From Rozella allomycis CSF55 (taxonomy: Eukaryota): a stretch of 64,000 nt of DNA. Below the pieces are notes generated by a model. That model was not told the origin of the DNA, ran no database searches, and saw only the letters and a program-made list of their open reading frames with translations. The translations under genes were made by a program, and so were the position numbers. Below, piece after piece: positions 9,820-63,652 of the stretch; position 1 is the first letter of the stretch; each line of letters begins with the position of its first letter. The stretch is from the NCBI GenBank assembly GCA_000442015.1, contig KE561117.1, positions 62,001 through 126,000 on the forward strand. Reading direction: 5' to 3'.

Positions 9820-11800
9820 ATGTTTGGAAGTGGATTTGGCGCAAATCAGCAGCAAAACCAGCAACAGCAAACTCCGGGATTTGGTCAATCAAATACTGGC
9901 TTTGGTATTTAAAATTTGCAATAATAATACAGGTTTTGGGGCACAGCAACCAGGACAACAACCAGCAAGTGGATTTGGAGGGCAAACAGGTTTTGGAGCA
10001 AGTAAATTAATATAAAAAATTTTACGCAGCAAACAACAATGTTTTTGGAGCGCGTCCAGCGGCTAGTGGATTCGGACAGCCATCAACGACTACGAGTGGA
10101 GGATTTGGATTTGGAAATACTAGCGGGAATACCAGCGGCGGAATGTTTGGACAGCCGGCGAGCACGGGCTTTGGACAACCAGCGGCTGCATCAAGTGGAG
10201 GGTTTGGACAGCCAGCAACCGGAAGCACTGGATTTGGATTTGGAAGTGGTGCTCAAACTAGTGGATTTGGACAAACGTCGACAACTGGAGGGTTTGGTCA
10301 ACCGAGTACTAGTGGGAGTGCTTTTGGGCAACCTTCGACAAGTACGACTGGGGGAATGTTTGGGAGTTCGACAACTGGAAGCACATTTGGGCAACCTCCA
10401 GCTACTCCAGGAGGAACTTTTGGGAGCAGTGGGCTATTTGGACAACAGCAGCAACAAACGCCGAGTGCCTTTGGACAACAGCAGCCAGCGACTAGTGGAG
10501 GGATGTTTGGTCAGCCGGCAAGTAGTGGATTTGGAACATCAACACCAGCAACAAGTGGATTTGGTGGACAGAGTGGTGGAATGTTTGGACAAGGTGCGAA
10601 TACAGGATTTGGAGGCACCAGTAGTGGATTTGGAGCTCAAAATACAAGCGGTGGATTTGGGTCATTTGGCGCTAGTGGAGGGTTTGGATCAGCTGGGCAA
10701 TCTATGATACCTACGTCGGTTGTTGGAACAGGAAACCCACCATTTGTTCAAACAGAAGATACAGGAGACACAACCGTTGGATCACAAAAGAATTATTTTC
10801 AAAACATTTCAATGATGCCAGCGTATATCAAGAAGAGTTTGGAAGAGTTGAGATGGGAAGATTACCAGCAAGGGAAAAAGTTTCCTAAATCTTCTTTTGG
10901 GGCTACTAGCGGATTTGGTGGGCTATCAACAACTGCAACGAATCAACCAGCAACTACAGGAACGGGATTATTTGGACAAACTACTACAACAGCACCTGCC
11001 TTTGGAACCAATGTGACATCTAATCAGCAACCTAGTGGAGGTTTATTTGGACAGCCCAGTACAACAACGAACACCATGACATCAACATTTGGAAGCAATC
11101 AACAACAACCAACGGCCAGTTTATTTGGTGGAAATAAGTTTGGAACAACAACAACAACAACTCAACCAACTGGGGGATTGTTTGGAAATAATACTCAACC
11201 GGCTACAATAGGTGGATTATTCGGTCAACCAGCGTCAACAACTTCTGCACCTGCATTTGGATCTACTACTACCAGTACACAACCTTCTGGTGGATTATTT
11301 CAACAAAATACATGTAAGAAATTTAGTTGAATATTAATAGCAACTTTAACTCAGCCATCTTTTTCGTTTGGATCTACTCAGCCACAGCAATCTCAACCTG
11401 CGCCACAGCAGCAAACTACAACAACTACTGGAGGGTTTTCGTTTGGACAGCCTAGTGCTACAACTGGCAGTACGACAACACAGCCAGGTGGAATGTTTGG
11501 AGGGTTTGGATCTACTACAACTACTGNTTTGGAGGGTTTGGATCTACTTCAACTACTGGAGGACTATTTGGCAATACTAGTGCGAATAATACAACTACTG
11601 GAACAACTTCATTATTTTCTAATCCATCAAATACTACAAGTTCCTTTGGGGGCACGGCACCTTCACTATTTAAGCCACCAACGACTACAACGAATACAGG
11701 ATTTTCATTTGGAACTACGCAGCCTTCAACTACAACAACTGCTACTACAAATTCATTGTTTCCATCGAGTTCAACTGGTCAATTTTCATTTGGCGGGAAT
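9820..11800 (+). repeat. Low-complexity FG-repeat coding region
   Basis: Recurrent GGATTTGGA/TTTGGACAGCC units encoding GFG/GLFG/FGQP. Confidence 0.9.
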
Positions 11801-14734
11801 GCAGGGAGTAGCAATTTGATGACACCTAATAAGCCAAATTTAGTAGCAACCATTGATAGTCAATCGTATGTTCAATCTCCGTTATTTCAAAATCTGTCTG
11901 CTACGCCAGTTGTGAATAGATCGCCGGAAAAGAAGAATGTGACAGCGACACCAAAGTTTACGCCTCGATCTACAACAAAATTCAAGCCACGCTCTAGATT
12001 GAGTTTATTTGAGAGTAATCAAGGAGGAGAATCATCAATGTTGTCGCCAGAGTCTTTTGTTACCAGAAAGTCATTGAAAGAGTTGGTGATTATTCCGCAG
12101 TCAACGCCTACAGTGAATAGAGTGTCTCAGTTGAATCCAATAGCGTTGGCTACTCCTGTTAAGAGCCAAAGTAAGTTTGAGCAAGAGGAAGTTGAAGAAG
12201 AAAAGTTGTATTTTATGAAGCCATCGTTGAATCAATTGAGGATGAAGAGTAAAGAAGAGTTGAAGAGGGTAGAGAATTTTGTTGTTGGAAGAAGGGGCTA
12301 TGGAAGTGTAGAATTTTTGGAGAGTGTAGATTTGAGTGAAACAGAGTTGGACAAGATTGCTGGTTGTTTGGTTGTGTTTGTGGAAAAGGAGATTGCTGTG
12401 TATCCAGAAGAAATAAATAAGCCGCCAGTTGGCCAGGGGATGAATGTGCCAGCGCTTGTGAAATTGGAAAAGTGTTGGCCAGTGAAGAGATCTACGAGGG
12501 AGCCTATAAAGGATAAAGATAGTTTGGTGTTGAAGAAGCATGTGGAAAAGTTGAAAAAGGTTGAAGAGACAGAGTTTGTGGATTATTTGGTGGAGAATGG
12601 GGAATGGGTATTTAAAGTGAAGCATTTTAGTAAATATGGAGTGCCTGAAGATGAAGATGATGAGGAGGAAGAAGAAAAGGAGAATTTAGTTAATAAAAAT
12701 GTTAATGTGGAGGTTAAAAAGTAAATAAATTTTGTTTTACTTATAAGTTTTAAATGTAATTTTAAAATTGATGAGATGAGTGTAACTGAAGAAGAAGATG
12801 CAGTGCAAGATGAGATGGTTGAAGTGGTTGAATCTGTTGATGAAAGCTATGAAGAAGTCAGTGACAGTGAAGAGGATGAAGAGAATGAATTCAGTAGGGA
12901 AAGTGAAGAGGTTGAAAGTGAAGTCAGTGAAGCCATGAGTATTATCAGTGAAAATGAAAGTGAAAGTACTATCAGTGAAAGTGAAAGTGTTACAAGTAGA
13001 AATAGTCAGAATTCAATTGATGAAGAAGCATTGAGAGTTTCAATGAATGAAAATAATTTTCAAAGAGAATTTATTCCATCTAATGGGATTGAAGATTTGG
13101 AATTTCAAATGACGCCCATAACTAAAATAAATAGATCAACGTTTAATAAATATTACGAATCTTTCTTTAATCAAGATCAAGTAGAAATAAAACCCTTGAT
13201 GAAGAAGGATTTAAAAATAAAAAACAATGAAATCTTTCAAATTAAAAGAAGAAAAATTAATCTAAAAGATTCTCTATTTAAAAACAACAATGAATTAATT
13301 TCATTTAGACAATTTAGAAGATCTATTTTTAGATTAGAAATTGATAATTCTTTTTTAGATTCATTAAAATATTTTATTTCTGAAATTTCAAAAGATCCAA
13401 AATCTATTTTTAGTTTTAAACAATTTGAATTAAAAGAATTTGAAATTTATTCTATTTTGTTTGATGGTGAAATGTCTGTTTTTGAGAGAAAGCAATTATT
13501 AATTAAGTTTATCAAAAGCAATCCATCCACTCTGAAAGAGTCTAATCATTCTGAGGAATCTAAAGAGTCTAATCAGACAAGTGATTCTAATCAGTCAAAT
13601 GATTCTCTCCATTCAAAATCTTCTGTCTATTCAAATTCTCTCTATTCAAAATCTAATCCACTTTATTTAATTTTGGAAGCTCTGGTTGCGTTGGATGTAA
13701 AGAAAGCAACTTGCCTTTGCCATTTAAATAATTTTCATTTTCTAGCTTCAATTATCTCTCAATCCCCCGGTGATCTTTCTTTTAAATTAAACTGTAAAAA
13801 TCAATCTTCTTTTGAAACTTCAAATATTCTTTATAAAATTATTCTTGAATTGTTATCTGGATCTATTGACACTCTCTTTTCCATCTTCAATCTAGATTGG
13901 ACCCAAATACTCGGTCTTTACATCTTTTATGTTTTTCCTCTAAACACAAATCTAGATAAAATATTTCAAAGATTTTCTTCCTTTTATCAATCTAAATCTA
14001 AATCTCTAAATAATTTCCCTTTTCACTTTCTTAATCTATTTCATGACAAGGGTTACAATCCAATCTACTTTCTCAAAGATCAACATCCAATCCTGGCTTT
14101 AATTATTTCCAAAATTTTAATCTCTAAAAATATTATTAATCTCAAAGATGATTCTTTTCTCATCATGCAATCTGTCAATCATCTATTAAATGCAAATCAA
14201 ATAGATCTATCTATTCACGTGGCTTGTTTATTGAAAAATGAAAATCAAAAACTAAAAATAGTTTCTGAAATTTACAACTCTCACATTCACTTAATTGATG
14301 AACCTTTAAACAATGAATTCATTGAAATTTACCATCAAGCAAAAGCTTTATATTTCATTTCAAACAATCAACCAGAATCTGCCATTGACCATTTAATCAA
14401 AGCTAATTGTTTAGAAAAAGCTCATGAAATCATTCTCGATTTAATTCCTCTATTCTTTATTAAACAAAATTTCTCTTTAATTAAAACTTGGCTCAACTAT
14501 CCTCAACTGGAAAATGTTTTAAATCACAATTCTAAAATATTCAAACTCTTTATTGACAAGTTGGATGGTTTAAACGTAGACGCGGAAATTCAAAAGTGTT
14601 TGCAAAATCTGTCTTCTGCAAATATGCCAAAGTTGCATTTCGCTTGTATTGTCAAAATTAATCAGTCTATGCAGTCAGAGTTTAAAACTGTCAGTCAGAA
14701 AATTAAATCGATTCGTGACTCTACTTCTGAATAA
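9820..14734 (+). CDS. NUP98: Nup98-Nup96 nucleoporin precursor
   Basis: FG/GLFG-type repeats, GLEBS (ISMMPAYIKKSLEELRWEDY), autoprotease domain with HF|S (KVKHFSKYG); intron 12721-12747 joins it in frame to the 12776-14734 helical Nup96-like ORF; n11527 junction inside the repeats. Confidence 0.9.
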
Positions 14735-33291: not shown

Positions 33292-35615
33292 ATGATTGAA
33301 CAGAAACGATGGTTTTTTCATGAAAGAAACAAAATTTTAACATTTATTAAAGAAAGAAAGGTTGGAAAGGTTGTGTCAAGCTCTCACATGATATACGGTT
33401 ATCGAATATACGTTGTAGAACAATGGTAGCAATTAAATATCTACTAAACAGGCTAATTGATAGGAATAGGTTATATAATTCTTTAATTACATTTACTGGC
33501 GACTTGAATGATAAAGTATTCATAAAATGTTTGAAATACAGGTCAACGTATGCAGCGTCGAGTTTTCCACTCCTTCAAAGACTATAGACAAATTATTTAG
33601 CCAATATAAAATGGACAAGGCCAAGTCAATCGCAATAGATGATTGCGAGCTAATGGTTCTTAATTTAACCCAATTTCCCGCAGATTTAAATTTGATACAG
33701 GTTGAAGATGGAGAATATGATTTACACATTAGGACAATTTTATTAAATTTAAATTTAAAGAGACTTGGATTCACATCTAGAGGATTGATAAATATTGTTG
33801 ATCAAAGGTGCCATTAAAGTTATTATGCTATTGTAGTAATGTGCATCAAGATAAATTTTATCAAATATATAAAATTTCAGAAAACATACCGATTAGCTTT
33901 GCTATATTTGAAGTGATGGTATTGATTCAGACGTCCTTGGCGATACTTGGATATTTTGATTCAAATATGATCGATGGCATTTTTTGTGATTTCACCTTGA
34001 AAGCTTTGGAATTTTTTCAAATTGATTACAATATTAATGTCGAAACAGAGGTATCTTTAAACAGGTTTACATAAAAGGCCGACAGATTATGTTCCCTTGC
34101 CTTAATAGTGTCATTATTGAGCAAAGTGAATGTGTATAACAATAAACTTGGTTTACTTGGTTTTCAAGTGCCTTTGGATCCATTTACTGAATATCAAGAA
34201 CTGAATTCTATAGTCACCTTATTTCAAGTAGAGAAAAAAATATATCTTTAGAAAGAATTCGGCAAATTTAGATCCTACGGGATATCTCGATGAGCATACT
34301 AACAGAGCAATCGATGAATTAGTCGTCAAAACATTTAGACAGATGGAAAAAAGGCCAAAAAATATGAAGAAAAAGATTCATGAATATCCGAGTACTAGTG
34401 ATTGAAAATTTTTTTAGTTAATTTTGAAACGACTGATTTAAATACATTAATGGAAGGTACATCGATTAAGCGATTGAGATATCTGTGGCTTGGAACGTCA
34501 AAACATGTGAATCAAGAAAGCGGTGCTGGAATATTACAAGAATCCAAAGAAATAGGAAAATCAATTTTAAGAGAAGTGGCTCATAAAGTAAAAACTCTCT
34601 AATGAACCACCCAGGGAAAAAATCAAATCTACAAGGACAAAGATGTCAAAGAAGCAAAGAGGCTATTAGAGCATATAAAAAAGTTCTCTTCATTTAAAAA
34701 CAAACAAAATACCCTTCCTTTTACTGTTCTTGATGACAATTCATTGGAAAAGATGGCACTCACGTCAATCTCTGATTTTGATGAAGAAAAATCAAAAACA
34801 CCCGACGATGGTAAACATGTTTTTAAAGAAAATAAAGAAAACTCCCCAAGCAATGATTTTTACGGTGATATTTCACCTATGGGCTCAACATGCGCGATTA
34901 TGGAAATCGATCCCGAGGAAATTCCGAAATTTCGAGATCAGAGAATTAAATCGTTAGTTTTAGATGAAAATCAAAATAAAAGAGGCATTTTGTGGCACAG
35001 ATCTCTATCTTATTCAGATTTTTTAAGTTTACGCGATGAAAACGACGATGAAGATGTCTCCGACATAGACATTAAGGATTGGAATGAACTGATCATTTTC
35101 CAGAATCAAATTCAATCAAAGCAAGAATCAATAAATGAATTATTAAAAGTACTTGAAGTAAATCAATGTATATTTTATTTCCAAGAATTTAGAAACTTAC
35201 GGAGAATCTCGAAACCACGAATTTAAAACCAACTTGGAGACATTGGAAGAGAAAATAAGCGTAAATAAAATATGAATTTCTTATTCAGGAAGTTAAACTT
35301 ACAATCCAAGAAATATATAAATGCCAAAATGATGTTACATCTTTAATTGATGAACTTCAACTGGAGTCATCAAAATTACACTATGACTTAAACATATATG
35401 AAGAAAAAATTAAAGATGTGAATGATCTAATGATCGCCGAAAGTATGCACAGTTCTGGAGCGTCCACTAGCAACATTTTCTTAAATGTTTTTCAAATGAT
35501 GTTTTCAGCGTCCAGTAGATTATTTTATTTTAATAGAGTAGGTATAGCTGCAATATACATTATGATGGTACCAAGTAAAGTAAAAGAATTCTTAAACGGA
35601 AATAAATTAAACTAA
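33292..35615 (+). CDS. STB6-like (Sin3-binding) protein
   Basis: GYRIYVVEQWLIDR..ITFTGD, LMVLNLTQF..LIQVEDG, LNLNLKRLG, DGIFCDFT, RLRYLWLG; C-terminal coiled coil; many introns. Confidence 0.8.
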
Positions 35616-36473: not shown

Positions 36474-37534
36474 TCAATTATCCCAAAATGTCATAAATAA
36501 GTCGTGGTCATTACTAAATTCGTCATCTAACGGTAAAAAGGAAGAAAGTGACGATATTGACGTGCATGACTGGGACAGCGAATCTCCAACGGTGTTTCCT
36601 GCACTTTTATTTTTGTCTCTTAAAGTATTTGGCAATTTTATTTGGCTTCTATCTCTCCTTTCTGGGCACGGAAGTCCAAGTTCTTTACTCTTCTCGATGA
36701 ATTGCTCCAGCTCCTGATCGTATCTCTTCTTGTCCGCCACTGCCTTTTCGTAGTAAATGGCTTTTTGGTCGTCCGTTAATTCCTTCCACTTTTGAGCCAC
36801 TTGACATGCTCGATCTTTGAAAGGCACATCCAACTAGATGAGAATGTACTGTACGAATTACCCCTGGACTTATTTCTTTTGTGAAAATAACATACGCGGA
36901 TACATTTCTTTTAGGCTTTTTTGGTATTAATGAAGGATCTTTTGGGCGGGGAGGCGGGAGTTCCAAAGGTTTGCATGCAGAAGTATTACCTTTGATATGC
37001 TTCTCATAATACTCATTTTGTTGCTTAAAACGTTCTTTATCTTGATTAGCTGCTTGGTAGTACGGCAATTTTTCACTTTCAGTCATTTGTTTCCACTTTT
37101 GTGCTATCACCATGCTTTTTTCTTGGAAATTGAGAGGCCTACCATTAAAGTCAGGTAGCTAGTTTGCTATAACTAAAAAAAATTACATTGTTATATAAGT
37201 GTTTTGTAAAAAACATATATGCAGTCAAGTTCTTCTTGGGAGCATTTTTCTCCCTAGACGGCCGCTCCCTTCGCCTCCGTTTCTTTATTCCATCGTCTAC
37301 CGATGTTTCAGAATTATTTGGAGCTGTACGATCCATCTCTTTTCCAAAATCTATATTATCCATTCTCATGCCAGCTTGATTCATAATATCAAATTCATTG
37401 TAAAGGGTTAGTTGCCCTTGTTGTGATAAGCAGAAAACTCTAGATCCAGGAAGCATTCCACTTGATCTTATAATATCAGATGGTATGCGAATGCTTCCAT
37501 CACTGTCTACAAACAACTCATATTCTGAGAGCAT
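36474..37534 (-). CDS. Two-HMG-box protein with an N-terminal AbrB/MazE-like domain
   Basis: HMG1 APKKNLTAYMFF..IAQKWKQMTESEKLPY..DKERF; HMG2 KPKRNVSAYVIF..VAQKWKELTDDQKAIY..DKKRY; two 28-nt introns; N-terminus VDSDGSIRIPSDIIRSSGMLPGSRV. Confidence 0.85.
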
Positions 37535-37805: not shown

Positions 37806-39971
37806 TTAATTTTCCATAGTGTAGTGCTTCAAGCTGCTATAAGTAGAAGACCAAACTTTGCGCAAAATATCTACTCTTAGCCGCCCTTCATTGTAAATGT
37901 AAGATGCTTCATTGTCAATGGTGCTATTATTTATCCTTAAGGATTTATTCCATGAAACTTCAGATTCTCTTAAATACACCATATCTTGATTCGTGGGGTA
38001 AATTTCTAAATAAAAATGGTCACCTTAATTACCTTCTGGCTTCATTTTAAGCTCTTCTATGTATAAAATTGTTTTATCCACTGATTCTGCAAAATCCCAA
38101 TCATCAACCTCATCTTCGTTGCCACACCATTTTCCTGTGGTAGGATCAAATATCATGTCGTCAATCTTTTCTGGATTTTTCTGCCCTAAGCGCTGTATCT
38201 GTCCCACGTGATGACCGTTGTTAAGTTGATTAAAAACATTTTTATCATTTTCATTCCCCACCCAATTCATATTTGTCTTATCGTAAACCATTTCACAATC
38301 CCCTATTTAACATTATGAAATGTTAATACCTCTAAAATTGATATTTTCACTCTTGTTTAAAGGAATCACCTTTTTCATTGATGTGGTTCTCTTGCCGCGC
38401 TTAAATTTCTCCTTTTCTATTGGATGAACAAAACTTGAAACTCTTTGCCGGCGTAAATCATGCGTCTCTTCCTTGTTAAGTACGGTGTTCTGGACCAAAA
38501 CGGTTTCAGGTTTCATTTGACATTCAAATATCTTTTCTGCTTCCAGGTCTACTTTTAAATCTTCAATTTCATCAAGCTCATTTCCATCAAATTCTTCTTT
38601 CAACTCTTTTAGCTCTAATTTATCGGATTTTATTTCAAAATCGCCCACAACGGCATGAACACTTAAAGTTCGAATTCTTTCCAACGAATGAGGCAAGTTT
38701 CCATTTGGCTTCGGGTACTTAAAACCATATACTGGCTTATTCTGCCTAACAATACCTTCAGGGGGTAGCTCAAGATCTGCTTCGAAACCATTACATTCCT
38801 CATCTATTTTTTCGACTTCGTTCTTTTTTTGAAGTTTCAGATTAAATTCAACTTCTCCGTCTAGTATTAATCCACTCGAATCATCAGATATTTCAAGGCA
38901 ATCTTCAACGTCATCAACAATAACCTTAGAGTCCTCAGCATTTTCCGTACTCCGAGGAGAAGTCATTGCAAAACTTTTTAAAGTGAGAGTTGACGCATTT
39001 TGATTATCTTGTACATTTTTCACCTTCAATTTGGTATTTAATGCGTCGGCACAAATGTTGTTGCTTGTCAAGTCGAAATCATCGCCATAATCTTCATGGG
39101 CCTTATAAATTACGCTAGGTGAAGAATCCAAAATATTCTCATTTTTGGTAGTATCCAATTGAAACTCTTTCTTCATTATGCTCACTTCTTTCGTGGCGCT
39201 CTGGAAATAAAAATCCAAGCATTTCTTAGGATTGGTAACTTTATTAGAGAAAGTGTCATCACATGAAACAGACTCATTTCCATTCCCGAACAAGACGTGA
39301 TGAGGAAACTCATCGGGGACTTCCAAATCAGACCAAAATGAGCTTTCGTTTTGAGCATTAACGGGAATGAGATTCTCAGCAACTATTTCGTTTTCCTTGT
39401 CATTATTAAAATTCAAGTTGTGAACCAAGGGATGGTCTTTTGGGTCCATGTTGATCTCTGATAGCATTGTCTCATCAGGACTGAAAAAATACACTTTTCT
39501 CTTTGGTGAATTCAATCCTTCAATTTCCAAAGGCTTTCTTTTTTCACAAACCGGAGAATCCATAACAAAAGGTTCTACTAGATTTCCAGATGTAGGGAGA
39601 ATGCTTATATGTGAAGTATTGGCGTCTTGGCAGTCAAATATTCTTGCGTTATCTGGTTCTTGCTCTTCAAAAAACGTTTCAGTTTTTGATTTTTTCTTTT
39701 CTTCTGATCCTGGTGTCAGTAGTTTGTTTGAAATTCTAAATGGTGAAATTGGCCTTGTTTCGCGCTTAGTTTTAGATGAATAACCGCTTTGTACTTTACT
39801 TTCTTTAATTCTGTGATTTCTTTTGGACTTGTTTGACTTTCTTTTTCGTTTACACGTCTAATAATGATAAAGCAGTTGGATTACTGTATGGGCCCCTGTC
39901 ACATAGCCTATTGTGAAGCATATCGTAGCAATTAAGCTTAATTCAACGGATGCACTTGAATTGTCAGTCAT
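37806..39971 (-). CDS. Byr4/Bfa1-like septation/mitotic-exit GAP scaffold
   Basis: Long acidic low-complexity region followed by two imperfect repeats, MVYDKTNMNWVGNE and MIFDPTTGKWCGNE; three introns. Confidence 0.6.
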
Positions 39972-55585: not shown

Positions 55586-57654
55586 TTATGAAAATAGTTT
55601 GATGAGACCGTCAGCGCCTGAACTAACCAACCAAGGTTGTTGAATATGGAATTGACAGTTGAGAACACCGAGCCCGCCTTTGTTTGAATGGCAGCGTAAA
55701 ATTTTAACAGGTACGATTAAAGGATTTTGCAATAAATCTTGGTAGACCATTCCATGATAAACTTGAGTAGTTCCATCATCAGAGCAAGAAGCAAACAAGG
55801 GATAATTGCGATGAAAGACAACATTTCTCACGGCCTTTTTATGAAATCTTAAAACTTTGTAAGGCTTTGGAGAAAGTTCCATATCAATCCAACAAACTTT
55901 TTTATCGTAACTTCCGACAATAATATTATCACCTGGATTGAAGAATTAAAAAAGTTTTACCTGAAGGATGAATGGACATGCTTGAAATCCATCTAAAACC
56001 AGGGCTTAATTTTCTAACTAGTTCTTGTTTAGAGAGATCATAGATTCTAATGAATTGTTGAGTCGCGACATAGAATAAAGGTCTCTTTGGATGAAACAAA
56101 ACGTTTTGAACAATTCCACCAACTTTTTTAAAAGGATTTTGACTAATTTTCTTTGAAAGTTGATGAATCAGAACCGATTTGCTTGAGTGGCCTTGTGAAG
56201 CCACAGTAGCGAAATAGTCACCCTTGTTATGCCAGACACAAGATTTAACTTGGGCTGAATGGTTTATTTCCAATTGAGTTTCATCAATTAATTTCCATTC
56301 AGCTGCTTTGGATTCAAAATTCTCAAGTTTTAAAATTTGTTTTGTGGATTCAGAAATTTCTTCGTCTGCAACGTCTGGATGAACAAGAATAATTTTCTCT
56401 CCAAACACAACAGCAAACAAAGAAATAGAAACAGAAGGATTCCAAACAACTTGTTGGATGACTTCATCGTAGGTCCAAGTTTGAATACAACGGCCAGTCA
56501 TCAATTCCCATAATTTAACAGTATTGTCATCAGACCCTGAAACTAACCATTGCCCAGTTGGATCTACAGAAACAGATCTAACCCTGCCAGAATGACCCTT
56601 GTACACAACTGATAAAATAGATGGAAAAGGTTTCAACTCCTTTGGATCAGGAAGTTTTGGAATCAATGACTCGGGATCTATATTAATCTATTTTAAAAGT
56701 AAAAAATCTGTTTTACTCTATTCTTACGAACACGTGGGCATAGATAAAGATCTAGGCACCTCTCAAATCTCTCTTGAAAAAATTTATTATAAGCAGGAAT
56801 GTGACGCATGCAATCAAATTTGCGTGGAATAAATGAAGTTTCTCTATCCTTAGCATCTTTAGCTTCCCACTCCTTCTTTTCTTCTTCAGTCATTAAATAC
56901 TCTTCAGGTGGGTTATAAGACTCTGCATGTCCAGGCAATTTAATCTTTGGCGCAGGAATCTTATCAGTTCTCTTTGGCTCTTCAGAATCATTCCAAATGT
57001 CATAAAATTGGGGTTTCTTTTCAGTTTTTGGTCCATGAGGAAGAATCAATCCCTTTCTTATAGCTCTAACAACCTTCATTATCTTTTTTTAAAAATTAAA
57101 TGACATTACCTTTTGATGTTCCCATTTGGATGGTAAAAATCTCCTCTTAGGTTCAGGCTTGCTTAAAACAGGATGAATACTTTGTTTGTAAGTAAAGAAA
57201 TCCACCGCATCTTCATAAGGATCAGCTTCCGTTGCAAATGAACCTTGCTGAAGCTTTTGAATAATATCAATTTCTTGCGGTGTTAACACTATGTCCTTGT
57301 CATCAACATCATCATGAATGGTTCTCCAATACTTCGGATCATCCATCTTGGCCAAAAACTTTTCAAGTTCATCTGCAGTTGCTGGCTTCATAATCTTTTT
57401 CCCGTCAACGTCATATCCGATATGCGGATACTCTTCGTACCACTCTCTAGGTACTTTCCCCGTCCTGTTTATTGGCCCCTTTTATTATTAACAAAGCTTT
57501 ATACCGCTTCCAGATCCGAATCAGAGTCTTGGTCGTCGTTGAAAACAACAGTCTTGTCTTGCTCAGATTCAAACTCTGTATTTTCAGTACCCGTCATTTC
57601 ATCTTCAGAATGAATATTTATATCCGCCTCTTCATTGTCTTGCTTTCTTTTCAT
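55586..57654 (-). CDS. ERB1: Ribosome biogenesis protein Erb1/BOP1
   Basis: [49 protein letters not shown]40 repeats, [12 protein letters not shown]. Confidence 0.95.
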
Positions 57655-58555: not shown

Positions 58556-61500
58556 AAAGTCGGAGAATTACATCATCAGTTGGACAGGATACATCTCCAG
58601 GAAGGTGGGTCAGGACCGCAGTTCTTGGCATCGTTGCAGAAGATTTTTGAAAGACTGTCACTGTTAAACGCCCCCATACAGGAAGACCAGAAGTACTTTC
58701 AAGTATTAAGAAGACTCCCGCCAAGTTATCGAGATTTCGTAAGAATGGCGGGTCAGGTGGATGTTACCCACCGTACGTTTGAGAAAGCCAAGGCCATGCT
58801 AGAGGATGCATGGAGAGCAACAGGTTAACTGGAGGCAGAAACTTCGCAGCAAGATCAAGCATTAGTTGCGAAACGAAGTTATAAGAGAAAAATTCAATGT
58901 TACAACTGTGAGAAGTTTGGGCACTACAAGAGTGAATGTAGGTCCAACGACAGAGGACACAGAAGTAAACAACTTTGGAAACCAAATGGAAGAGGCACAG
59001 CACTCGTGTCTAAACAAAAGGAAGATGTAAACGAAATCGCGTCTATTTTGGACAGTGGAGCATCAAACCATATGTCAGGCCAACTGAGAACTCTTCCGGA
59101 CCAACACATTGGAGCAGATAACACCAATTAACATCAGTACCGCAGGGGGTACAGTTTCGGCGACCCATAAAGGAATCATTGATTTCTCAGCATAAGTGGA
59201 CGGAGTATGTCAGGAGATCCATTTAATGAACGTTTGGTTTGTTCCAGGTCTTACTCACAATCTCGTTCGTGGTCAGGAATGTCAAGTCAGTTTGAAAGGC
59301 CGAAAAATATAGCAAGCGACATGCTCAACCCAACCGGGATCCGTCTTTGAAATAACTCAGGCTGTCTCGAAGGCTCTAGTAGCACAATCCGCCATCGAAG
59401 AATTACGGCACAAAAGAATTTGCCACTTCAACATGCGTCAAATACAAGAGATGAGCAAAATAAATATCCTGAAAGGATTGCCAGCCATATCCAACGCCAC
59501 AAACCACTTTTGCAGTTCATGCGCCAAAGCCAAGGTCCACGAAGAAGCGAAGCCAAAGACGCCAAAAGAACGACCACAGCAGAAACTTGCAGAAATCCAC
59601 TCGGATATTTGTGGCCCCATTACAGCATCACATTCAGGACTAAAATACTTTCTAACATTCACGGACGGATACAGCGACATGACCTGGATTTACTTCCTTA
59701 GAACAAAAGGTGAAACATTTAATTGCTTAAGAAGGTTCGTAAAGATGGTAGAAACAAGTGAAGGCATCTCCATTAAGACACTCATCTCAGATAATGGAGG
59801 GGAGTTTACGTCAAATGAATTCAAGAGATATCTCGAGGAGACGGGAATCAGTCATCGCACCACCGCACCATACAGTCCATACCAGAACGGTACAGCCGAA
59901 CGCAAGAACAGAACTATACTCGAATCCATACGCGCCATGTTGGCATCAGCAAATCTCACAAGTTGGATTTACCTTCAACAGAAGCCATATTTGTTGGTTA
60001 TGAGCCCCATGGTAACTGCTACCGATTCANTATTCGATAGTGCATTTGAGATGATTAAATTTGGAAGAAAGTTTTCAAACAGATGGATAGGACCATACAT
60101 GATAAAAGAAAAATATAATAATGGAAGCTTTAAGTTAATGGAACTTGATGGCACTGAACTCAAAACTAATATTCATGGCAATAGGTTGAAGTTATTTAAA
60201 GAGAGAGCTTTAAATAACAAAGTGCAGGGAGAATGTAAGGAAGAAAAAGATATTATCATCGATCCAGATCTAACATCATACATAGAAACCTATGNTACCG
60301 ATTCATCGACAGCAACGGAAAATTAATAAAATCTCGCAGCGCAATATTCGAAGAACAATCAAGCAAAAAAGAATCAAGTTGCATTTTGACAGAGGAGCTG
60401 GAAGATGAGGCTGATGAAAAGGAAAGTCAAAATCAAGCTTCAAGTTCAAGCCACCCGAAACAACCAGAGACACCACAGAAAAACACCACCACAAAGAGAC
60501 TTACTGAAGAACCATCACCGTCCGCAATCGGATTACGACAACAAAAGAAAATTGATTATAGTGAAGATCCATCAGACGCTGAAGATGACGCACGATCTGA
60601 AGCCGATGACGAGTACGTACCCATGGACCGTTCATTAGTGGCTTTGTCCCGAATTGCTGATCCAGACACGCTGACGTACAAGGAAACGAGAGAAAGAGAG
60701 AAACCGGAGACGAAGTGGATAAATGGGACGCATCAATCAAGGTGGAACTAAATAATTTGCAGAAGATGGGAACTTTTAGTTGGGTAAAACTTCCAGAAAA
60801 CAAGAAAGGCATCAAATCAAAATTGGTCTTTAGAAGAGAACGTGATCAGCATAATAACACAGTAAAGTACAAACGCAGATTAGTCGGAAAAGGATTTAGT
60901 CAAAATTACTGACTCGACTATACAGACACATATGCCCCCGTCCTAAAGATTGGAACACTGAGAGAACTATTGGCAATTGCATCCAAGAGAAACATGAAAC
61001 TGCAACAAATCGATTTTGAAGCGGCATACTTAAATTCAAAGCTGGAAGACAAGATATATTTATTACCTCCGGAAGAGGTGGAAATTGATAAAGAACATTT
61101 GTCAGGAGAAGGATGGGCGATGAAGCTACACAAAAGATTGTACGGACTGAAACAATCAGGTAGAAGATGGTATTTAACATTGGCAGAATATTTGGTCGAA
61201 TTGGGATTTAGTAGATTGGAATCTGACTGGGCAGTATTCAAAAAACGATAAATGGACGATTGCAATGATAGGAATTTATGTCGATGACCTTTTAATATTT
61301 GCGGAGGAAGAAAGCGAGATTGCAAGCACTATAGCGGAGCTCGAAAATAGATTTAAAATAACAAAGACAGAAGGAGGAGTTGGGTAATTCTTGGGAATTC
61401 ATATTCAGAAGACAGGATACAGCTTCCAATTATCTCAGGAAAGATTAATATATAATATTGTGAACAAATGAAAGAACTAAAGATTATTAATTACAAGCAC

Positions 61501-63652
61501 CCCAATGGAAGAAAACAAGAAATTAATAAAGGAAGAGAANACAATCGGATTAAGACAACGAAAGAAAATTGATTATAGTGAAGATCCATCAGACGCTGAA
61601 GATGACGCACGATCTGAAGCCGATGACGAGTACGTACCCATGGACCTTTCATTAGTGGCTTTGTCCCGAATTGCAGATCCAGACACGCTGACGTACAATG
61701 GAAACGAGAGAAACCGGAGACGAAGTGGATAAATGGGACGCATCAATCGAAGTGGAACTAAATATTTTGCAGAAGATGGGAACTTTTAGTTGGGTAAAAC
61801 TTCCAGAAAACAAGAAAGGCATCAAATCAAAATTGGTCTTTAGAAGAAAACGTGATCAGCATAATAACCCAGTAAAGTACAAATGCAGATTAGTCGGAAA
61901 AGGATTTAGTCAAAAATACAGACTCGATTATACGGACACATATGCCCCCGTCCTAAAGATTGGAACACTGAGAGCACTATTGGCAATTGCATCCAAGAGA
62001 AAAATGAAACTGCAACAAATCGATTTTGAAGCGGCATACTTAAATTCAAAGTTGGAAGAAAGGATATATTTATTGAACATTTGTCAGGAGAAGGATGGGC
62101 GATGAAGCTACACAAAGGATTGTACGGACTAAAACAATCCGAAAGAAGATGGTATTTAACATTGGCAGAATATAGATTGTACGGACTGAAACAATCAGGT
62201 AGAAGATGGTATTTAACATTGGCAGAATATTTGGTCGAATTGGGATTTAGTAGATTGGAATCTGACTGGGCAGTATTCAAGAAAACGATAAATGGAAGAT
62301 TGCAGATGATAGGAATTTATGTCGATGACCTTTTAATATTTGCGGAGGAAGAAAGTGAGATTGCAAGCACTATAGCGGAGCTCGAAAATAAATTTAAAAT
62401 AACAAAGACAGAAGGAGGAGTTGTGTTATTCTTGGGAATTCATATTCATAAGACAGGATACAGCTTCAAATTATCTCAGGAAAGATTAATAGATAATATT
62501 GTGAACAAATTAAAGAACGAAAGATTATTTATTACAAGCACCCCAATGGAAGAAAACAAGAAATTAATAAAGGAAGAGAAACAGTCAGAAGAAGATAAGA
62601 AATTTCCTTATAGAGAGATTTTGGGATCCTTATTATACTTAAGTAATGGCACGAGACCGGACATAAGTTTTGCAGTTGGCTTATTAGCAAGATTCTCTTC
62701 ATGCTACACAAAAATTCATTGGGAATCATTATTAACTTAGCGAGATTCTCTTCATGCTACACAAAAATTCACTGGGAATCATTATTACGAATCGTCAGAT
62801 ATGTTTATTCAACTAAGAAACAAAGATTATATATAAGCAATGAAAACCAAAAGGAATTAAGGAATTAGAAATAGTGGCATACTCAGATTCAGATTGGGCA
62901 GGAGATTCAAATGATAGAAAAACTACAAGCGGTTACTTTATGGGCAAGGCACTAGTTTATTGGAGACGTAAGAAACAAGCTTTTCACGCAATGAGTAGTA
63001 CCGCGGCTGAATACATTACACTATCAGAACGCGCACAAGAGGTTATTTGTCCAAAATCGTTACTAGCATGACTGCAATCAAGGAAAAGATATTTTGTGAT
63101 AATACAGGAGCAATAAATTTGAGCAGATCACTCGNTTGACGAGTCAGTGCATCAAATTTTGATTAAGTTCTATAACATCTTCACATATTATCAACGCCTC
63201 CAGCTTTTGGAAGGGGGTGATGTCATACTTTACCTCTTAGGGGGTCNTTTTATTGGAGAAGTAAGAAACAAGCTTGTCACGCAATGAGTAGTACCGCGGC
63301 TGAATACATTTCACTATCAGAATGCGCACAAGAGGTTATTTGGCAAAAATCGTTACTAGAAGAGTTAAGCATGACTGAAATCAAGGCAAAGATATTTTGT
63401 GATACTACAGGAGCAATAAATTTGAGCAGATCACTCGTGAGTAACAATAAAACGAAGCGTATTGATTTACGCTTTCATTTCTTAAGAGAATCAGTTGAAG
63501 AAAAGAAATTCATCTTGCAGTACATTTCTACAAACGAAAACTTAGCAGATCTACTTACAAAGAGCTTGGGACGAATGAAGTTTACAAAATTGATGCAGGA
63601 TATTCTGGCGAAGGGGGATGTTACGGAAATAGGAACATTACGCCAGAAATAG
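58556..63652 (+). mobile_element. Degenerate Ty1/copia LTR retrotransposon (mosaic of at least two copies)
   Basis: Gag remnant, protease LDSGAS, integrase (IHSDICGP, SDNGGEF, PYQNGTAERKN) ahead of RT (QIDFEAAYLN, LYGLKQSGRRW, YVDDLL) and RNase H (YSDSDWAG, ENLADLLTK); stops and frameshifts; RT duplicated across n61540. Confidence 0.92.
60031..60294 (+). mobile_element. Ty3/gypsy-type integrase C-terminal fragment between single-N junctions
   Basis: KFSNRWIGPYMIKE..GSFKLMELDG..IHGNRLK; the copia sequence resumes after n60295 with the same TACCGATTCA that precedes n60030. Confidence 0.7.

Follow-up and report, generated by a model that had tools for sequence, protein, structure and literature searches.

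A tandem HMG-box protein of Rozella allomycis with a probable AbrB/MazE-like N-terminal domain

In the part of the literature accessible to us, AbrB/MazE swapped-hairpin domains are treated as DNA-binding dimers of bacteria and archaea, and HMG boxes as chromatin modules of eukaryotes. Can the two be joined in one protein, and what would the former do there? Both questions are raised by a gene on the minus strand of a 64,000-nucleotide stretch of Rozella allomycis CSF55 DNA (assembly GCA_000442015.1, contig KE561117.1, positions 62,001 to 126,000); this whole stretch is called the window, and coordinates refer to it unless another contig is named. The gene occupies positions 36474-37534, and a sequence-only reading had described it as a prokaryote-type AbrB/MazE domain fused to two eukaryotic HMG boxes. 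According to the analysis given here, the protein belongs to the HMG-box superfamily and has a new module at its N-terminus, which would work like the AbrB/MazE domain and, on sequence grounds, is probably homologous to it.

The N-terminal domain and the AbrB/MazE family

The peptide on which the fusion had been proposed is encoded at 37397-37534, in one exon with a run of basic residues and the opening 18 residues of HMG box 1. Since the domain, the basic patch and the start of the box share this exon, no splice is needed to join them, in line with the earlier argument against an artefact of the gene model. The two HMG boxes were recovered by Pfam: HMG_box_2 was matched in exon 2 with 47.9 bits and in exon 3 with 30.9 bits (E values in Table 1), both above the cut-off of 22.4; HMG_box was also matched. 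On the N-terminus, the Pfam run that had been proposed as a check found PF04014 (MazE_antitoxin) as the sole family, with 15.8 bits and an E value of 0.014 for the 46 residues and with 13.3 bits for the whole exon of 116 amino acids (aa). Residues 9-34 were aligned to positions 4-29 of the 48 positions of the profile. Of nine control tiles of the window, four had chance matches to unrelated families (E 0.11-0.19) and none matched PF04014.

The N-terminus was also compared by hhalign with alignment A1, which comprises 32 of 39 PF04014 domains extracted from prokaryote genomes. The 58 N-terminal residues matched A1 with Prob 86.5 and a P value of 4.6e-6 over residues 9-44 without a gap, and the proline of the G-x-h-x-[IL]-P motif fell on the one invariant column of the family. 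E. coli PrlF, as the positive control, gave Prob 96.7, and a tile of the BOP1 gene, as the negative control, gave Prob 1.5. When all 666 six-frame tiles of 58 aa in the window were compared, the N-terminus tile had a P value of 4.8e-6 and the runner-up 1.1e-3, the latter being the chance expectation for 666 trials. The real score was reached by 0 of 515 shuffles, and the reversed sequence gave a P value of 0.26. An independent alignment of 11 domains replicated the match in the same register (P 8.9e-5), a score that 0 of 281 shuffles reached. Given these results for the 666 tiles and the shuffles, the resemblance to AbrB/MazE is beyond chance at the scale of the window, and the profile similarity to bona fide PF04014 domains is significant, full-length and in register. 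The likeness claimed from the letters of the DNA is thus supported in silico, with scores below threshold in the curated libraries.

A search of 1.84 billion representative proteins with exon 1 returned nine matches. They are the partial protein RKP18740.1, six multi-HMG-box proteins aligned over the basic and HMG part only, a 549-aa tandem-repeat protein (P0012, query residues 29-57) that was judged to be a chance match, and P0009, a gene call of 286 aa on the metagenome contig Ga0209960_1017726 (L058). By local blastp, residues 12-55 of P0009 align with residues 2-45 of the Rozella protein at 36% identity and without a gap, and the two N-terminal domains have 17 invariant columns. In P0009 the domain is followed by a low-complexity linker of some 150 residues, rich in N and S and unalignable with the Rozella linker; a basic patch comes next, and then the beginning of an HMG box, where the gene call runs into an intron at the exact position of Rozella intron 1. 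The frame holds 292 open codons, from 6 codons before the first ATG past the start of box 1. Further exons of this gene, which spans positions 904-2712 of its contig, were read from the DNA. With them, box 1 is whole (Pfam E 4.9e-10) and is followed by a second and a third box (E 0.0072; E 0.00088 and 1.7e-7), of which the second is interrupted at the position of Rozella intron 2. The metagenome gene therefore differs from the Rozella gene in having three HMG boxes instead of two and longer introns (about 67 nt and more, instead of 28 nt).

Against A1, the N-terminus of P0009 gave Prob 62.9 and a P value of 7.1e-5 in the same register, and a profile made from the two sequences beat either one of them (Prob 93.5, P 2.3e-7, 41 columns). 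Among the PDB sequences, the two-sequence profile found at E values up to 10 only 7d2n_E, of the AbrB/MazE/SpoVT family, in register and with a non-significant E value of 1.2. In the ESM Atlas, the metagenome protein reached 0.87 with two clusters, one of PF04014 (62% of members) and one of the AbrB-like PF14250 (98%), and the window protein 0.80-0.83, including a cluster at 0.80 in which 11% of members have PF04014; all of these scores are below 0.9 and are taken as leads. Architecture and N-terminal domain are, in these alignments, conserved between two clearly diverged organisms, which speaks for the first ATG as the translation start and for the domain being under selection.

Run without an alignment, AlphaFold2 (AF2) predicted strands at residues 8-9, 15-16, 32-36 and 42-46 and a helix at residues 19-24 of the window protein (mean pLDDT 57.9); for the metagenome protein it predicted the helix and the second hairpin only, the first hairpin being unpredicted (pLDDT 52.9). 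The Foldseek check proposed earlier was run with the monomer model of the window protein against the PDB. SpoVT appeared at ranks 1-2, Sso7c4 at rank 3, the N-terminal domain of a B. subtilis transition-state regulator at rank 8, VapB at rank 24 and AbrB at rank 35, none of these matches being significant. When two copies of residues 1-58 were given to ESMFold2, an intertwined homodimer was predicted with an ipSAE of 0.38, the best control reaching 0.01. The mark that this prediction passes was passed by 21 of 30 homodimers and 0 of 23 single chains in a microbial benchmark; in a eukaryotic one, 17 of 29 homodimers passed and none of the 30 single chains did, the count being only 1 of 7 where no older solved relative existed. 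Contact agreement between runs was at least 91% and the pLDDT of the partner at least 67. About 190 touching residue pairs, involving residues 1-46, are present in the predicted dimer, and the contacts of lowest error (16-16', 17-15', 43-43', 44-42', 7/8-32'/33' and 9-30'/31'/33') imply the strand order b1 b2 b2' b1' b3 b4 b4' b3'. The same order is given for the swapped-hairpin barrel of VapB2 (PMC3326315). Fold and dimer are both predictions of models. The sequence-only reading had named as evidence against itself the lack of any profile or structure match to a swapped-hairpin barrel; a profile match was obtained and, in the predicted models, a structural one.

Does such a domain still touch DNA? 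It holds three lysines and arginines in 46 residues, compared with 5-11 (median 7) in the 32 bacterial members, none of which is as low, and its net charge is -2, the median of the family being +1.5. Over the nine residues that precede the invariant proline, the net charge is -1, the range among the 32 members being 0 to +3. In VapB2 the loop of hairpin 1 contacts bases, and the connection between strands 2 and 3 holds conserved basic residues that bind phosphate (PMC3326315). By these counts, the Rozella domain falls short of the basic DNA-contacting residues expected in this loop and this connection, which concerns binding and not the fold. It would seem from this depletion that the domain has largely lost its contact with DNA and that dimerisation is what the fold has been kept for.

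Gene structure, database model and neighbourhood

The structure of the gene was read from the DNA (Table 1). Both introns start with GTAAT and end with TAG, and the reading frame opens just 5 codons 5' of the first ATG. Other splice sites considered for intron 1 (acceptor 37139/37140, donor 37173) were rejected, since only 37186-37159 preserves both the frame and the HMG box. Introns of such a small size are plausible here because the window has an excess of GTA..YAG candidates at 26-28 nt (28, 21 and 18 cases, versus about 10-14 at adjacent lengths). A ciliate-type genetic code, which the tiny introns suggested, was discarded, since the standard code already gives long open reading frames (ORFs) with eukaryotic and fungal domains. 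Both HMG boxes start with P-K-[KR]-N-x-[ST]-A-Y, with Thr or Ser at the site where sequence-specific HMG boxes of the SOX/MATA kind have Asn, so that they may be of the non-sequence-specific HMGB/UBF type.

Table 1. Positions in the window of the features of the Rozella HMG-box gene and what each assignment is based on (NLS, nuclear localization signal)
Feature	Position	Strand	Basis or remark
Whole coding region, 3 exons, 334 codons plus TGA	36474-37534	-	Exons joined give 1005 nt without internal stop
Exon 1 (116 codons)	37187-37534	-	One open exon
Exon 2	36862-37158	-	Read from DNA
Exon 3	36474-36833	-	Read from DNA
AbrB/MazE-like N-terminal domain, residues 1-46 (putative)	37397-37534	-	PF04014 match below cut-off, hhalign, predicted structure
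Family-aligned core of N-terminal domain, residues 9-44	37403-37510	-	hhalign
Acidic linker, residues 47-84, net charge -5	37283-37396	-	Not conserved in homologue P0009; blastp aligns residues 2-45 only
Basic patch, residues 85-98, 8 K+R of 14	37241-37282	-	Possibly NLS-like and/or a basic arm ahead of HMG box 1
HMG box 1, first part, residues 99-116, end of exon 1	37187-37240	-	P0004, with the same residues, aligns to the HMG_box profile from position 1 on
Intron 1 (candidate from DNA), 28 nt, GT..AG, phase 0	37159-37186	-	Same position in HMG box 1 of L058
HMG box 1, remainder, about residues 117-172	36991-37158	-	Pfam HMG_box_2 E 2.3e-12, exon 2 residues 8-52
HMG box 2, first part, about residues 197-215, end of exon 2	36862-36918	-	Pfam: two HMG stretches in exon 2
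Intron 2, 28 nt, GT..AG, phase 0	36834-36861	-	Box-2 position matching that of intron 1 in box 1; second box of L058 likewise interrupted
HMG box 2, remainder, about residues 216-262	36693-36833	-	Pfam HMG_box_2 E 4.6e-7, exon 3 residues 4-43
C-terminal tail, residues 263-334, acidic-hydrophobic end, then TGA	36474-36692	-	No Pfam family; possible activation or auto-inhibitory role

The sole database model of the gene is RKP18740.1 (P0004), a partial hypothetical protein of 70 aa from Rozella allomycis CSF55, which is 100% identical to residues 88-116. It starts at residue 88 and joins exon 1 straight to exon 3, the exon 3 part having been judged by eye. The species name on this record bears out the earlier guess of an early-diverging fungus, Rozella being a parasitic one. 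The N-terminal part of exon 1 is absent from every protein on record in the collections searched, and the current annotation appears to miss it. By its join of exon 1 to exon 3, RKP18740.1 has one hybrid HMG box, for which an annotation shortcut and a real isoform are both conceivable; skipping of exon 2 stays in frame because both introns are in phase 0 and lie at matching positions in the two boxes.

The family scan of the neighbours covered 20 of the larger ORFs of the window. By Pfam, the genes of the window encode ankyrin repeats, ALG6/8, NT-C2, Nup98-96, a GATA_AreA protein, ETF and a Ty1/copia element, and the G+C content is 33-40%. Because it has introns and ordinary eukaryotic neighbours, the gene is a nuclear one of a fungus-like eukaryote and not contamination. 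A lone weak tblastn match at 33370-33444 (E 0.019), considered as a paralogue, lies inside an unrelated ORF and was taken as chance. In zygomycetes and microsporidia, the sex-related HMG locus has an HMG gene between the genes for a triose-phosphate transporter and an RNA helicase. This arrangement was not seen among the scanned neighbours, which encode an ankyrin-repeat protein, a 514-aa ORF, ALG6/8 and NT-C2.

As for the other genes, the upstream neighbour at 38313-39857 on the minus strand is an open frame of 514 codons without a Pfam family. The Nup98-96 gene (10011-14734, plus strand) extends over several ORFs with FG repeats, GLEBS, autopeptidase S59 and Nup96; its in-frame stop at 12722-12724 probably lies within a short intron, and a GT..AG candidate intron of 27 nt is found at about 11314-11340. 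The Ty1/copia-type retroelement at 59313-62740 comprises gag-pre-integrase and rve, with an RVT_2 match on the tile 62300-62437. The gene for the BOP1/Erb1 N-terminal domain is located at 56693-57481 on the minus strand, and one tile of it serves as the example of a false positive for a weak local AbrB hidden Markov model (HMM), which is considered below.

Role of the domain and alternative explanations

We regard it as moderately probable that the product is an HMGB-type nuclear DNA-binding protein with an AbrB-like N-terminal dimerisation module that would bring four HMG boxes together. Residues 1 to about 46 would form a swapped-hairpin domain of the AbrB/MazE/SpoVT kind, and this would most likely be an obligate dimerisation module, because the fold exists only as an interleaved homodimer. 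The dimer would hold two chains, hence four HMG boxes, together, and its likely task, in chromatin or in transcription, would be to bend, loop or bridge DNA. The basic patch ahead of box 1 might be used for import into the nucleus, for touching DNA or for both, and the acidic-hydrophobic end of the protein might be a regulatory or activation tail. We infer that the domain dimerises rather than binds DNA, and in the same way the cellular role of the protein. The idea of an obligate dimeriser had been put forward before, and it agrees with the intertwined homodimer that was predicted and with the shortage of basic residues.

An AbrB-like domain that still binds DNA and supplies sequence or shape specificity, the HMGB-type boxes merely bending the DNA, is an unlikely alternative, although not one without arguments. 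With Thr or Ser in both boxes, specificity would have to come from elsewhere, and one Arg near the short helix as well as one basic residue opening strand 3 are kept in both homologues. The AbrB, MazE and VapB domains are DNA-binding dimers (PMC3326315); in the Rozella domain, however, basic residues are fewer than in all 32 bacterial members, the region corresponding to the base-contacting hairpin 1 of VapB2 is net acidic to a degree seen in 0 of the 32, and the conserved basic position of the family after the proline aligns to Ile.

How much weight can the resemblance itself bear? It might be convergent or due to chance, the N-terminus being a small beta-rich domain restricted to the lineage, or a partly disordered region, unrelated to AbrB/MazE. 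We consider this quite improbable; several results nevertheless weigh on its side and against an AbrB-like fold. All curated thresholds are missed, the PF04014 score staying under the Pfam gathering cut-off of 24.7 bits, and the N-terminus of P0009 alone has no PF04014 match in Pfam. E. coli PrlF, which we take to be an accepted AbrB-type antitoxin, fails this cut-off too (19.7 bits), so the cut-off does not delimit the superfamily. The N-terminus gave no match in an NCBIfam search, no AbrB match by phmmer among the PDB sequences (only a non-significant one to GyrA), and no match by tblastn against plasmids at an E value of 10. A plain HMM made from 38 domains scored just 6.3 bits, a value equalled by 2 of 5000 shuffles, and gave 6.5 bits for the unrelated BOP1 tile; it was set aside as too weak to discriminate the target from this tile. 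The P value of 4.6e-6 is convincing for one window, and corresponds to about one chance occurrence per genome-sized six-frame search. Both AF2 monomer models are of low confidence, no Foldseek match of the window model lies below an E value of 0.3, and no AbrB-like chain is among the matches listed for the metagenome model. The passing score of the dimer may reflect memory of solved AbrB-type dimers and speaks for likeness, not binding, and the structure and language-model tools share the sequence signal and hence are not independent of the profile match. The family is known from two sequences, and all support for the fold is computed from these.

Set against this, both sequences, although just 36% identical to each other, align with the family over the whole domain and in one and the same register, and their joint profile outscores each of them. 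In hhalign, no other tile of the window and no shuffle reaches the score of the N-terminus, the strand order predicted for the dimer is exactly that of the fold as given for VapB2, and the only match of the pair among PDB sequences and the Atlas leads point to the same clan. A last alternative is that the N-terminal 46 codons are untranslated, owing to a downstream Met or a different 5' exon structure. This we hold to be very improbable, even though RKP18740.1, the one model on record, starts at residue 88 and skips exon 2, and the N-terminus occurs in no recorded protein of the collections searched. The Rozella frame is open from 5 codons before the first ATG to the HMG box in DNA of 35% G+C, and the frame of the metagenome gene is open over its 292 codons. 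A downstream start, which the earlier reading had itself held to be damaging, is unlikely, given that the first ATG follows a stop by 5-6 codons and that the domain is a conserved island, 36% identical and gap-free in a second organism, whose linker to the HMG box is unalignable.

Where could the domain have come from? A more specific form of the dimeriser reading is that a Rozellomycota-restricted chromatin family acquired a prokaryote- or phage-type domain by old horizontal transfer, which was then stripped of its DNA-contacting basic residues and became a pure dimeriser for tandem HMG boxes. This form is tentative and falls somewhat short of being probable. No close prokaryotic relative of the domain was found with the 58-aa query in one genome each of 185,579 prokaryote species, and searches with alignment A2 gave no relative in viral contigs and no further one in metagenome contigs. 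Homologous-protein searches for the N-terminus, including one with region 1-58, returned nothing, and a longer-range profile search returned only P0009. Because no prokaryotic, viral or plasmid donor was found, horizontal transfer is neither supported nor refuted.

The earlier statement that no AbrB-HMG fusion had been described agrees with our searches. Among the papers found, judged largely from abstracts, none describes a eukaryotic AbrB-type domain or such a fusion, and no catalogued family with the architecture was found in the collections searched, in which one environmental relative was the only other case. A conserved fusion of this kind would represent a new domain architecture and a clear case of a prokaryotic DNA-binding fold that serves again in the nucleus of a eukaryote, apparently to dimerise. 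Under the tentative reading with an old horizontal transfer, no earlier use of the swapped-hairpin fold in a eukaryotic chromatin protein would have been described. The fusion would add one more bacterial-type part to the Rozella/microsporidia lineage, and it suggests a simple and testable way in which an HMGB-type protein could gain DNA-bridging capacity.

Comparison with known systems

The N-terminal domain resembles the members of the PF04014 clan (AbrB, MazE, SpoVT and VapB) in that about 45 residues at the extreme N-terminus are predicted, at low confidence, to form strand-strand-short helix-strand-strand, in that the alignment with the family is gap-free with the proline on the invariant column, and in the predicted strand order of an interleaved dimer. 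Unlike the members of this clan, it lies in an intron-containing nuclear gene of a eukaryote and is fused to HMG boxes; it also stays below the gathering score and is less basic than any of the 32 bacterial members. In contrast to the antitoxins of PF04014, the Rozella gene has neither a toxin partner nor an operon context among the scanned neighbours.

The remainder of the protein is similar to the tandem proteins of the HMGB1, NHP6 and Abf2-TFAM type, with two boxes of putative HMGB type, a basic arm before them and an acidic tail after them, and the best database matches outside the gene itself are multi-HMG-box proteins. We know of no swapped-hairpin N-terminal domain in the proteins of this type. 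The N-terminus of the Rozella protein is acidic, unlike a mitochondrial presequence.

UBF and other HMG-box proteins dimerise via an N-terminal region. No sequence relationship with UBF was seen, Pfam giving PF04014 only, and the dimerisation fold of the Rozella protein would be of a prokaryotic type. The likeness would instead lie in the proposed principle, namely that dimerisation through an N-terminal module raises the number of HMG boxes at work on a single DNA and may thereby enable looping or bridging.

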